Positions 9,801-16,239 of a DNA stretch of 64,000 nt are shown in pieces (within the stretch, counting starts at the first letter, position 1; every line of letters begins with the position of its first letter). The notes beneath the pieces are model-generated. The model was given only the letters and a program-made list of their open reading frames with translations. It had not been told where the DNA came from and made no database searches. The stretch is from the NCBI GenBank assembly GCA_964016885.1, contig OZ024740.1:186062001-186126000 (forward strand), in the 5' to 3' direction. This DNA is from Eledone cirrhosa. Taxonomy: Eukaryota. The position numbers and the translations under genes were made by a program.

Positions 9801-12478
9801 ATATTTTAATTGACTTAAATTAATAAAAAGTTCGGATTAAATAATTATGTGAAGGCTACGAAAGTTAGATTATTTTCTTCTTTTCAGGATCAATAAAATA
9901 ACGTACAATTCGAGGGCAGACAATGAACGGAATATATAAAATGTTAGACAAGATATTTTCTCGATATTTATTTTGGTACATTGGGTAATGCATTCTTGGA
10001 TTGTACATGGAATCCGTCACACAATTGAAGACCATCATTTGGTTCTATTGTGCCTTTAGCAAACATCATTTATTGTAAGCCTTTGGGTCAAACCTCCGCT
10101 CTGAAGATTTTTTTTTTCCTTATTTCTATCAGTCTGGAAGGCAGTGAAACAATAAAAATAAAGGGCTCCGCCATACCCTCTCTGCCTAAATTGTAAAAAG
10201 CAAATATTTGTGATGCATGCTTCAAGTAAGAAACCAAAATTGGATACCCAAATTTCACATTAAGACGACGAGTTAGTACAGTCATTAGTGAGTGTGGGCG
10301 TAATCCATGCAGTATTTCGTTCTGATCGTCGTTTCGACGACTATTTTGTGTTTCATCATTTAGGGGAAAAGAAATACAATATCAGTGAGCACTAGTTGTC
10401 ATTTTGTAATTGTTCATGATTGTATACATGTAGGATGCTAGATATACTGATGTCGAGAATATGCAACAAGGTCATATATGCATCAAGGTCATATATGTAC
10501 GAACATGATTGGCTAGTTGATGTTCAGCACTATGAAATATATTAACGCAGACATGTGTATAATAGTGCGCGTGTGGTTTAAATGTTTACACTCATATTGC
10601 TAAATTGCAATAGATTGTCTCAACACAGGACGGCAGATAACGTCATTTGCCAAGCAACTGCAACAAGGGAATGTTACATCTGACTAACAGTAAATCAATA
10701 TTTGCGTCATGAGGCTTCAAAGATTTCATTTCTTGATGAAAAAAATTACAAGAAATAGGCACTGCGGTTTTAAAGGGCGGGGGGATATTTGATCGAAAGG
10801 AAAACTTGTGTGAATTTTAAATGAAATAATATGGAAGTTTGTCCTTCAAATAAATTACGTCTTTGGAAGCTATCTAATATTTGGTGATTGAGGCGAATAC
10901 ACAATTTCCAATATAGAAGCATCATCCCATGATTGTGCGCACCAGGACTTAGTAAATATTAAATGAGTCAAACACATTTGGCGAGGAAAAGAAATTTCAA
11001 TTTTCATGGTAAAGCCTGCCAAAGACTTTGTTATCTGTATCTATTAAACAATGCATTTCGTTCATGGACATTTAAATCAATATATGGAGATTTTCAAAGA
11101 TTGGGGTAAGACTCGTATATACAATTGAAAGTTATACATATATTACCAACTTTCAAACTGCATTCTTTGCCTTAATAACTCGTTCTAAAAGCTAATTATT
11201 GAACAAGGTTTATTTATAGGTATATATTTGCATTTACTTTTATATACAACGTCAGCTGGTATTCAATTTAAATGCTAAATCTTAATTTCCGTATTTTTAT
11301 TAGTTTATCAGCAAAATACCTGACAAAAATAATAACTTCGTAGAAAATAGCTGCATGTCTTGATTCGCATGTTATTTTAAAACAGTTGAAATACGTTCAA
11401 AAATATATACGCGTAGGACTAAATATTTTACAGTATACAATGTTTACCTTCCGTTTTCTGCGTTCAAATATCAGGACAGTTAACTTTTCATCTACCTTGC
11501 CCTCTGTATGATCTCAACGAAATATATATCATTCATTTACCTGTTCTTGATTATTGTGGAGAATACTTATTACATTAAAATTGTTCTGGGAAACTTAATA
11601 CTATCTGTATATAATTCATTGCGACGCAGTACAGTGCAAAATCAAAACCAATCAGTTTCCAGTATGTATTTGCAAATGAAAACACCCGTGACAATAAAAA
11701 GTGTTGCCACTCATTGTAAAGAATTCAGCAAGATAAACTATAATTTCATCATAAATAACTTGACAACTTACTCTATCTTCCGTTTTGATCTATTTATTAC
11801 AACGTATGTAGAACATTATTAAATGTAGCATGAATTTAAATCATTTCCCAACAATATATAGTTCAATCCAATACAGAGATCTTTCACCCTTGTTGAAGGT
11901 ATGCCTCCCTAATTAGCCTGCACCACTTTTTGTTCGGTTTTGGTCATTCCAGGTTTGTAGCCGTACTCACCAAGCTCGTCTAGTTGCGGATTGTGTGGCT
12001 ATTTAACCGATAGTTGGGATGGAGGGCCATTGATTCTGAGGAGTTCATCCACCCTTTTAATAGTTCTTGTATTGTTTGTGCTACTGGGATTCCACCTACC
12101 CTCCTCATCGGACCAGAGTTATGTGAAGCAACCAGTTATTCGCCGACCACTCAACCAGGAAGCAGGATGTGCTAGGTTACAGGATACCAGTGACAGCTAG
12201 AAGCTTGACCTGATCATAAATCTATAGTTACCTCATATAAAATAAATACGATATTAACGATGGCCTCTAAGAGAAACAAAATTCTATAATCAATTGCATG
12301 AGGATAGAACAGTTCATTAATTGGACTTTAATATTTCACGGGTACTTATTTTGTCAACTCCAGATTGATAAAGGTGAAATTCAACCGCAACAGGATTTGA
12401 ACTTACTGAATAATAATCTTATATATATATATATATATATATATATATATATATATATATATATATATATATATATAT

Positions 12479-12636
12479 AGGAACAAGTAGGACCCCGACG
12501 GCTGAGCTCAAGCCGTTTCGACGGCTCAGCCGTCGGTGTCCTACTTGTTCCTATTCTACTACCCACTCTACTACCCTGAGTATTGAGTACTTTGGTGCGT
12601 TATGGTCCATCTGGTTCCTTACCACATTTCCTTCGT
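12479..12636. mobile_element. TA-embedded PLE-like terminal fragment with hairpin and HHR 3' half
   Basis: Arms 12479-12507 and 12524-12552; minus strand GUC-GAAAC-GGCU(ugagcuc)AGCC-GUC-GGGG; same family at 33678-33845 and 38166-38245. Confidence 0.65.
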
Positions 12637-13323
12637 TATATATATATATGTATATATATAAATATATATATATATATATATATATATATATATATATATA
12701 TATATATATATATATATATATATATATATATATATATATATATATATATATATATATATATATATATATATATATATATGTATGTATGTATATATATGTA
12801 TTTATATATATATATATGTATGTATGTATATATGTATTTATATATATATATATGTATGTATGTATATATGTATTTATATATATATATATATATGTATATA
12901 TATTTATTTATATATATATATGTATGTATGTATATATATGTATTTTTATATATATATATATATATATATATATATATATATATGTATGTATATATATCTA
13001 TTTATATATATATATATATATATGTATATATATATATATATGTATATATATATATATATATATATGTATATATATATATATATGTATATATATATATATA
13101 TGTATATATATATATGTATATATATATGTATATATATATATATATATATATATATATATGTATATATATATATATATATATATGTATATATATATATATA
13201 TGTATATATATATATATATGTATATATATATATGTATATATATATGTATATATATATATATATATATATATATATATATATATATATATATATATATATA
13301 TATATATATATATATATATATAT
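12637..13323. repeat. ~690-bp (TA)n array with TATG/TTTA interruptions
   Basis: Direct inspection. Confidence 0.98.
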
Positions 13324-13366
13324 TGAAAGTGTTAAAACAATCAAAATTTTAGTTTAATACATTTAT

Positions 13367-13415
13367 TTGTGACAATTGTTTCTTCCAAGGGGGTGTCTGG
13401 CTTCCTCGGAGCATA
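13367..13415 (-). ncRNA. Type I HHR, U4C variant (left-arm copy)
   Basis: UAUGCU-CCGAGGA-agCCA...UGGaa-GAAAC-AAUU-GUC-aca; 3' strand of stem I has lost a base. Confidence 0.5.
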
Positions 13416-13673
13416 TGGAATGTCTAAACAGGTAATTAAAACCCTAGTCTTCAGAACATTCAGGTAGATACATAAGTGTTGTTAGTGTCCTAGACACCAT
13501 GTAGATAATCGGCTGTTAAAAGAACGTTATGATTCAGAGAATCCAATTACTCTGAAGCATAACATTCTTTTAACTCCCGATTCTCTACATGATGTCTAGG
13601 ACACTAATATCACTTATGTAACTACCTAAATGTTCTGAAGACTAGGATTGTAATCACCTGTTTAGACATTCCC

Positions 13674-13724
13674 TATGCTCCGATGACATCTACCACCCCC
13701 CAGGAAGAAACAATTGTCAGCAAA
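13674..13724 (+). ncRNA. Type I HHR, U4C variant
   Basis: UAUGCU-CCGAUGA-...-GAAAC-AAUU-GUC-AGCA; palindromic AAUU loop III; stem II decayed. Confidence 0.6.
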
Positions 13725-14425: not shown

Positions 14426-14620
14426 AGTTTTAATATAGATGAGATTCTACAGGACTAGAACTGTTTCATTCATTAGAAATCATCAGTGATTCCTGATGAT
14501 TTCTAATGAATGAAACAGTTCTAGTCCTGTAGAATCTCATCTATATTAAAACTGTTATACTCTGCTATGTATTGAGTACCTTACTTACTGTGGTTACCTC
14601 CGATTCAACCCGGAATAACG
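14426..14620. mobile_element. TA-embedded perfect palindrome (61-bp arms, 6-nt loop) built on an HHR core, plus tail
   Basis: Arms 14426-14486 and 14493-14553; right arm begins exactly at CUGAUGA-U-UUC-uaau-GAA-U-GAAAC-aguucua-GUC; tail shares TATTGAGTAC with the 12479 element. Confidence 0.8.
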
Positions 14621-14637
14621 TATATATATATATATAT

Positions 14638-15056
14638 ATATATTGGTAAACGGAAAAGAAAATGCTGAAAAATTGTTCAAAGCGAAAAATAGTTTAATTA
14701 GGAATAAGTGAGAATTAGTAATAGTATTGGTTAGTATTCAGTTTTTGGTTTTAAGTTTTACCGGTTGCGCATTTCTAATGCTTTTCAAAAATAATTTTGA
14801 GATAGAGTGTCCGTGATGTTTGCTCTAATCAGATTAGAGCAAACATCACGGACGTTCTATCTCAAAATTATTTTTGAAAAGCATTAGAAATGCGCAACCG
14901 GTAAAACTTAAAACCAAAAACTGAATACTAACCAATACTATTACTAATTCTCACTTATTCCTAATTAAACTATTTTTCGCTTTGAACAATTTTTCAGCAT
15001 TTTCTTTTCCGTTTACCAATATATCTAACTTGTGTGTTACACATCTATTCTTTTAA
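14638..15056. mobile_element. TA-embedded near-perfect palindrome (~190-bp arms, 1-nt loop at 14831) with U3-A8-type HHR-like motif
   Basis: Arms identical apart from a small mismatch near the centre; UUGAAAA-GCAU-uagaa-AUGC-GCAAC-CG-GUA-AAA at ~14871-14906 and mirrored in the left arm. Confidence 0.85.
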
Positions 15057-15192
15057 ATATATATATATATATATATATATATTCACTCGAGGGTGACCGG
15101 CTAAGGTAGAAGGTGATGGATAGCGGTCGCCCTCGGGTCCTCGATTTTCAGCCCCATGGATTTTATCTATTACATTCACGTATTATATTTCG

Positions 15193-15252
15193 AATACCTG
15201 ATGATATCACCGGATTCATACGGAACCCGGTCATTGAAATGATCATAGTATA
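15193..15252 (+). ncRNA. Type I HHR in a TA-embedded insert (15083-15305)
   Basis: AUAC-CUGAUGA-uaucACCGG...CCGGUcauu-GAAAU-GAUC-AUA-GUAU; palindromic loop III, AUA triplet; AATAAA downstream. Confidence 0.7.
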
Positions 15253-16239
15253 ATAAACATTTCAAGGATTTACACAAATCCAGCCTCCTGTCATTTCATT
15301 ATATTATATATATATATATATATATATATATATATACATTTAACCCTGTAACTACCGATAGGGCGTTTCTTAGACATTTTAAGCCTTGTAGGATCTCGCC
15401 CAAATATTCTATCCGACATTCTAAACACTTAGCCAATTCACCGCCTACTAATATATATATTATTTTCTATTGAAATTACTTCAAATCTAAGTATTCTTTT
15501 CCTTGCAGTAAAACACGGTTAGTTTTAAAACTATATAAATATCGATGATTGCCAAACGGATAAATTGTACGAGAATTTAAAGTCCCATTACGAATAGTTA
15601 TATCAAAGAAAGAAATTCATGTTTTATTTTTCCATAAATTATAGAGTTTCAGCCTAACTTTGCTGCAATTAATAATTGATTATCTCTTAGACTATCTACG
15701 AATTTTGTTTGTTCATTATAAAATGTTGCTGTTCATAAAATGTTAATAGTGTTTTCTGAAACTAATATTATATATTAGAGATTGACCAAATTTTAACCGT
15801 AAACGTATGGAAATCATAAATGTAAATAACTGTACTTAATGAGAATATAATTGAACCATACTCACTCTTCATTTTACGAGAAGCTATTATTCATGACAAA
15901 CTGTCAGCATCTTTCTGAGTTCATTATTTTCTTAGTCAACGTATGGTTTATGAGCTCGCTGAAATTTCTAAAGTGCTCACCCAAATATGATTGAACAGCA
16001 ATTTTAAGGATATTTCGTGAACAATTTGAATAACTGCTTAGTTGTGGGAAATAATATATTGCCGTATCCATTTCATGCAGGAAAAATTGGCGATCTGCCT
16101 GTTACTTATCCTGGGGTTGGGGGCGTGGTATTGACAAACAAAGATTGCGTATGCCTAGACTCCAATGAAGTTTCGAGATGTAACAAACCTGACAATTGGA
16201 AATTTAAACACCACAACGCTTACAGGTAAGGAACAGGAA

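Follow-up and report, generated by a model that had tools for sequence, protein, structure and literature searches.

What fills a TA repeat with hammerhead ribozyme (HHR) motifs? The question is raised by positions 11974 to 15340 of a 64,000-nucleotide stretch of Eledone cirrhosa DNA (assembly GCA_964016885.1, contig OZ024740.1, positions 186,062,001 to 186,126,000 of the forward strand; the whole stretch is called the window, and positions are counted from its first letter). Here, TA tracts separate short inserts that carry whole or partial HHR motifs. The inserts are most probably the 3′ ends of Penelope-like elements (PLEs), i.e., HHR-bearing pieces of their pseudo-long terminal repeats (pLTRs), which belong to several families and were serially reverse-transcribed into TA, with the hammerheads as passengers. 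This is known PLE behavior, real and well formed; the families are new, and their kind is known.

The window is AT-rich (25 to 41% GC per 2 kb) and dense in TA, CA, and TC repeats. Palindromes and inserts were located by sequence inspection and repeat searches of the window. All five inserts claimed by the original prediction (A to E) were found between TA tracts, together with a sixth element (F0), as follows.

11862..12419, minus strand (probable orientation): F0 long arm (11974-12419) with a tail of about 110 nt, part of an older inverted pair
12420..12479: (TA)30 tract, from repeat search
12480..12636, plus strand: insert A, a 74-nt palindrome with an 83-nt tail; family copies at 33683-33844 and 38189-38230
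12490..12519, minus strand: 3′ half of an HHR in A (GAAA, stem III, GUC, stem I 3′ strand), by eye
12637..13323: imperfect TA array of 687 nt, from repeat search
13326..13892, plus strand: insert B, 214-nt arms 11.7% apart, tail of about 129 nt; family copy at 63754-64000
13676..13722, plus strand: type I HHR-like motif of B (CCGAUGA, self-complementary stem III, GUC, decayed stem II), from the relaxed descriptor
13910..14364, plus strand: F0 short arm, flush with (TA)29
14369..14426: (TA)29 tract, from repeat search
14427..14621, plus strand: insert C, identical 60-nt arms with a tail of about 69 nt; 3′ end like those of the Hydra clade of PLEs
14488..14536, plus strand: type I HHR of C, core intact, U10.1-U11.1 mismatch, 4-bp stem III, GUA
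14622-14645: TA tract between C and D
14646..15056, plus strand: insert D, 185-nt arms 1.1% apart, tail of about 33 to 40 nt
14871..14906, plus strand: minimal HHR of D, U3-A8 core, A13C; mirror copy at 14756-14791, minus strand
15057..15082: (TA)13 tract
15083..15299, plus strand: insert E, a 5′-truncated end
15194..15251, plus strand: type I HHR of E, core intact, long stem II, self-complementary stem III, AUA
15300..15336: (TA)19 tract, from repeat search

The inserts measure 157 to 567 nt. Four are palindromic, as anticipated: A to D are head-to-head palindromes with a one-sided tail, in which the short arm abuts a TA tract and the tail sits on the long arm. E lacks a long palindrome and has only a short imperfect 5′ hairpin. 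The proposal of one (TA)n array as a common landing pad did not survive, since the inverted copies of F0 (11974-12419 and 13910-14364) have A, B, and some 770 nt of TA between them, giving a nested pair of arrays. The right arm of F0 is flush with (TA)29 and the left arm continues for about 110 nt before it meets a short remnant of TA; F0 thus appears to follow the same plan as A to D, and its center would later have served as an insertion target. A 55-nt local duplication within 14140-14260 of the right arm is absent from the left arm. The short arm adjoins 34 to 60 nt of TA at 6413, A, C, 20327, 38802, 28767, and F0, a long array at B, and (TA)12 at D. At palindromes of the window outside the cluster, the tail side often has a short TA remnant only.

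Divergence between arms (12.6% in F0, 11.7% in B, 1 substitution in 27 in A, 0 in 60 in C, and 1.1% in D) suggests that insertion was repeated over time, with F0 and B old and A, C, and D young, although this clock can be distorted by gene conversion between arms or by different templates, and the order is to be read accordingly. The inserts had been described as largely unrelated, and among the six elements 14 of 15 pairs are no more alike than shuffled sequence (A and C, P = 0.01, uncorrected).

A strict HHR descriptor found only 2 motifs in the window. It missed the dimer-type stem III and was relaxed to admit a self-complementary stem III of that type and the U3-A8 core. With the relaxed descriptor, C (CUGAUGA/GAAA/GUA; stem I of 5 bp, stem III of 4 bp) and E (CUGAUGA/GAAA/AUA; stem II of 7 bp, self-complementary stem III) have intact type I cores, with C3-A9, G12-A14, A15.1-U16.1, H17, and three stems; A, B, and D do not have the full set. 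B has a single core change, U4C, in all three window copies, and its stem II is decayed. D has the U3-A8 core with A13C in both arms and shares this core and stem III with an intact motif at 7105, from which its stem II differs by a compensatory pair (by eye). In A, the 3′ half alone is present in all three family copies and the CUGANGA box is absent (by eye); none of the scans, strict or relaxed, matched A. According to the available part of PMC3088659, U4C, U3-A8, and U10.1-U11.1 occur in natural hammerheads. F0 has no clear HHR, and a B-like motif considered for it was not established.

Nine further HHR sites had been predicted elsewhere in the window. Those at 6144, 7071, 20444, 28361, 56505, and 63922 were matched, family A is represented by half motifs at 33678 and 38166, and the one at 5783 was not recovered: positions 5789-5830 hold CUGAUGA followed by words resembling the 3′ half of A, which the scans did not match and which may retain the core that A lacks. 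Other palindromes with a tail lie at 20327-20709 (an HHR in each arm), 6413-6602 and 37163-37454 (decayed D-like pieces, by eye), and 38802-39212 (no clear HHR). A match at 42095 with an 11-bp stem was discarded as an HHR because it is located in a decayed open reading frame (ORF).

HHR cores are enriched. Seven zero-mismatch cores were observed window-wide against a mean of 0.475 and a maximum of 3 in 200 local shuffles. Matches with one mismatch allowed numbered 28 against 10.1 (maximum, 13, in 15 shuffles), so that about a third of them are expected by chance; a self-complementary stem III was present in 14 matches against 1.5 in shuffles (maximum, 4). The density of intact cores is about 100 per Mb in a window that was picked for richness. 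The cores also lie near TA: five of the seven have (TA)6 or longer within 200 nt downstream (permutation P = 0.00045), as do three of the five outside the A-to-E cluster (P = 0.013). The expectation that HHR motifs lie closer to (TA)n than permuted positions do was thus borne out within the window. The wider claim that most motifs are TA adjacent stands for the intact cores and fails at 56505, which is 6.3 kb from the nearest (TA)6 or longer; the matches at 56560 and 58266 are both >5 kb from TA, and the latter may be a chance occurrence.

Reads were mapped to families C, D, and E (14427-15299, 873 of the 3,367 bases of the cluster) in four runs at 80% likeness. These included contigs (X1) and restriction-site-associated DNA (RAD) libraries of two other samples (X21 and X22), whose reads have common start points, and their read numbers are not locus counts. 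In X1, 13,925 contigs match C to E, 11,146 of them <99% alike, and matching reads number 15,982 of 12.47 million in X21 and 15,304 of 12.79 million in X22. Summed contig depth peaks at 1.4 million (C), 0.86 million (D), and 0.73 million (E), values that are not copy numbers, and the eight X1 pieces listed have depths of 4 to 17. The three families are very abundant, with perhaps 10^4 to 10^5 copies. Bins at TA junctions have little or no depth because mapping skips repeats.

The reads also resolve the ends and centers of the inserts. D exits at 15024 into pure TA in 698 reads (X21) and 729 reads (X22), and the depth of its tail is 0.16 (X21) and 0.21 (X22) of that directly before it; the tail is optional and of the size known from PLEs. 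The depth of E rises about 800-fold from 5′ to 3′, a gradient of 5′ truncation. Among the 15 joints listed of 72, those of C place palindrome centers at several points, including stem II (14471>14508/9) and stem III (14462>14517). Most D reads run beyond the center of this copy into other sequence, with 958 and 705 loose ends at 14837; the read consensus weakly suggests that a short natural palindrome lies where D folds back (agreement, 0.59). A few asymmetric joints, e.g., 14471>14556/14559, each with one to three read starts or a single contig, give a hint of two-site priming rather than a simple snap-back.

Palindromic miniature inverted-repeat transposable elements (MITEs) or TA-inserting foldback DNA transposons could also account for long, nearly perfect inverted repeats beside TA, with the HHR-like words as incidental features or relics; a presumably mariner-like ORF piece at 19549-19923 likewise speaks for them. 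We give this very little credence: the one-sided tails, the 5′ depth gradient, and the variable centers are not expected from cut-and-paste transposition, intact HHR cores lie far above chance, and the mark of such elements, symmetric terminal inverted repeats whose ends and center are fixed, was not found. The features expected of endonuclease-bearing PLEs were found, i.e., a type I HHR near the 3′ end, truncation with an inverted copy, the tail of D, and a (TA)n bias.

A second alternative is that the short units are non-autonomous retrozyme-like or short interspersed nuclear element (SINE)-like elements, which self-cleave and are mobilized by PLEs in trans, the palindromes being by-products of short RNAs. 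Family C has a fixed head-to-tail joint with a period of 77 to 78 nt (14549>14488), supported by 50 reads with 14 starts in X21 and 14 reads with 7 starts in X22; loose ends with the same upstream letters number 762 and 806. This unit is little beyond the HHR itself. Separate consensus ends (agreement, 0.41 to 0.66) suggest a subfamily of C with a compensatory change in stem I. In D, the arms share variants present at no more than 0.2% of family depth (among the 40 rows listed of 132 in the variant table), which argues for one template or for homogenization. Units of 51 to 972 bp derived from pLTRs are described in the available part of a study of retrozymes (bioRxiv 10.64898/2026.07.22.740005), and two loci of the window have tandem 405/445-bp units with canonical HHRs (28243-28768 and 56385-57157). 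Nevertheless, the centers of family C vary, most D reads continue past the center, and A to E lack the head-to-tail HHR tandems of retrozymes, and we regard this explanation as unlikely. At the two tandem loci (28243-28914 and 56385-57157), the type I HHRs (from 28416, 56560, and 57005) have an 8-bp stem I with an extension; at the first locus there is, in addition, an inverted fragment of an HHR that ends in (TA)23. These retrozyme-like units would be the best candidates in the window for cleavage.

If the inserts are PLE 3′ ends, the following steps could account for them. (i) A PLE endonuclease would nick (TA)n, in keeping with the published target bias. (ii) Reverse transcription would start from either of two sites that lie about 15 to 200 nt downstream of the HHR, with the tail copied or omitted, a step that draws on the D reads and on in vitro work in which two reverse transcriptase start sites define the tail (PMC11167929, available part). 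(iii) Synthesis would stop after 100 to 450 nt, and short internal palindromes, in many cases HHR stems, would be the places where the ends are joined, yielding the head-to-head palindrome with a one-sided tail that is observed, by a chemistry that can be proposed only provisionally; junction palindromes have been interpreted as self-priming (PMC3846280, in part), and PMC6765202, also available in part, is among the works that deal with the origin of the tail, palindromes at junctions, retrozymes, and core variants. (iv) Each insertion would leave TA on both sides, so that further targets become available and the site is gradually filled. Since every insert contains sequence upstream of the cleavage site, the template was not cut there, which agrees with in vitro results in which uncleaved RNA mainly served as template (PMC11167929, same part). 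In a transcript of C or D, the ribozyme would be paired with the mirror arm of the same copy, and these copies are therefore predicted not to self-cleave.

Several results weigh against PLE 3′ ends. The tails of A, B, and C (83, 129, and 69 nt) exceed the published 30 to 40 nt. No hammerhead family was among the 150 Rfam matches listed of 172 at an E value of ≤1. Unconstrained folding gave no HHR-like fold for C, E, B, and 28416; it did for 7105 and 20476, two co-folded copies of D, 7105, or 20476 pair with each other through their stem III palindromes, and complete inserts fold into long hairpins. A GTAYTNAGTAC-like hairpin lies 40 to 55 nt from the 3′ end in families A, B, and C (12580, 13829, 14569, 33725, and 63804), a motif chosen post hoc and at chance level with one mismatch (12 against 11.2). 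Exact 11- to 13-nt motifs of the window are absent from the available part of the PMC8557442 supplement, and the likeness to the Hydra clade was found by eye only. No PLE reverse transcriptase or GIY-YIG ORF could be tied to any insert by Pfam, word-index, or profile searches. Pfam returned nothing relevant in 16 and 10 frames, two homologue searches with F0 frames were blank, and the sole profile match (P0001), an ORF with a 9-fold tandem repeat, had no BLASTP support and was rejected. The absence of an ORF is expected of short 3′ ends. A target site duplication is not discernible within TA, and no contig or read of the four runs spans 14427-15299, so that the stacking within the cluster is to be taken as provisional.

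This last gap, the near-empty TA junction bins, and the fact that the three best runs (holding 70 to 77% of the words of 10500-16500) come from one sample that may be the assembly source would also fit an assembly artifact that joined repeat fragments via TA, or palindromes that are fold-back chimeras of the library. Such an origin is highly improbable. The arms are 0 to 14% apart, unlike those of fresh chimeras, the same anatomy occurs at isolated sites with unique flanks, and fold-back joints are present in the reads of two other samples; the artifact touches the stacking alone and not the families.

Other observations in the searches concern neighboring or unrelated sequence. F0 was not established as protein coding. 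A decayed frame on the minus strand (40760-42150) has an IYVDDTF reverse transcriptase-like motif and ends near (AAT)n; Pfam, word-index, and PDB searches gave no match. A pattern scan of metagenomes found no D-type loci and 48 C-type loci, none homologous to C; stems are well paired in five, and the two with ORFs listed look phage-like. One phage-like contig unrelated to the window (L020) has well-paired type I HHRs 723 nt apart (1456-1501 and 2179-2224), each directly upstream of an ORF. Positions 51440-53354 of the window hold minisatellite arrays of 29 and 27 nt. The ORF piece at 19549-19923, which Pfam did not match, is presumably a mariner-like transposase, and a repeat at 7175-7332, 47351-47506, and 50816-50916 probably resembles an octopus SINE.

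A bolder possibility can be put forward only tentatively, and we doubt it more than we trust it: that hammerhead motifs in this genome number at least about 100,000, at roughly ten times the density of any published animal count, and are mostly tiny palindromic PLE ends in masked TA; that fold-back points cluster in ribozyme stems and record two-site starts and joining; and that family C includes a self-cleaving tandem unit of 77 to 78 nt. The possible novelty lies in amount rather than kind: this selected window has intact cores at about 100 per Mb, and, for comparison, retrozyme copies in the 28-Gb axolotl genome number up to 120,000 (PMC7229834 and bioRxiv 10.64898/2026.07.22.740005, in their available parts). 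If the density holds genome-wide, no other natural library would be as rich as this host in hammerhead variants and insertion junctions of PLEs. With junctions in the thousands, self-priming and two-site priming could be distinguished in PLE integration, a question named as unresolved in the available part of PMC8557442, and selection on HHR cores could be tested. Long perfect hairpins within transcripts could also be a large source of double-stranded RNA.

How, then, does the cluster compare with known systems? In the available portions of papers on cephalopod repeats, Penelope expansions are mentioned and the word "ribozyme" is absent; a literature search, which most subscription papers (including Lunse et al. 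2016) lay beyond, found no octopus HHR census. The original prediction of a ribozyme-retroelement system holds to the extent that PLEs, HHRs, and (TA)n come together here, that C, D, and E are abundant, and that D enters TA in reads; its suggestion of one of the most HHR-dense animal genomes is plausible. It does not hold as a new system, because (TA)n-targeting, HHR-bearing PLEs with inverted truncated copies, including Hydra-1_Obim, have been published. Parts of PMC8557442 describe 5′ truncation, an inverted copy, a 30- to 40-bp tail, and a (TA)n bias for PLEs, the insertion bias being noted for Hydra, Neptune, and Naiad.

Naiad PLEs, with their (TA)n target, inverted copies, and tail, are candidates for F0, and octopus Naiads with a (TA)n preference are present as remnants (PMC8557442, available part). 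Unlike B to E, Naiads lack canonical HHRs, and the F0 motif was not found in the accessible part of the supplement. Minimal HHRs of Neptune, Poseidon, and Cercyon pLTRs (PMC4209133, by Cervera and de la Pena, 2014, available in part) fit D, E, 7105, 20476, and 6148 in having a short stem I, a palindromic stem III for dimer cleavage, the U3-A8 variant, and mostly solitary, truncated copies, and they are also known on opposite strands 100 to 700 bp apart. D resembles these minimal U3-A8 HHRs of other PLE clades. Their published counts run to thousands (about 9,000 in Xenopus tropicalis and 4,000 in coelacanth); the density in the window would be far higher, if genome-wide. Non-LTR retrozymes (PMC7229834 and bioRxiv 10.64898/2026.07.22.740005, same parts) are non-coding, have a type I HHR, and are likely mobilized by PLEs. 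The tandem units at 28243 and 56385 and the 77- to 78-nt joint of family C resemble them, whereas retrozymes form head-to-tail arrays and A to E are single or head-to-head.

The 3′ ends of A and C appear closest to those of the Hydra-clade PLEs (Craig et al. 2021; Hydra-1_Obim, Penelope-1_NV, Penelope-1_SK, and Penelope-13_HM), which share the type I HHR, (TA)n, and an inverted 5′-truncated copy. Differences remain: the inserts have no ORF and are 157 to 567 nt long, B has U4C, and the HHR stems of Hydra-1_oBim are unlike those of all five. According to the available part of PMC8557442 and its supplement, Hydra-1_Obim of Octopus bimaculoides combines a (TA)n preference with an HHR, and Hydra-clade type I HHRs sit about 100 to 200 nt from the 3′ end and have a stem III of 3 to 4 bp, which is ACAG/CUGU in four listed families, with cleavage at A in three. 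C agrees by eye in the position and stem length of its HHR and has the same ACAG/CUGU stem III and a GUA site, a likeness that is not a unique marker. The cleavage site lies 102 nt from the end in A and 90 nt in C, and the Hydra consensus preceding Hydra-1_Obim carries, close to its 3′ end, a GTATTGAG-AC motif that has similar counterparts, by eye, in the tails of both A and C.

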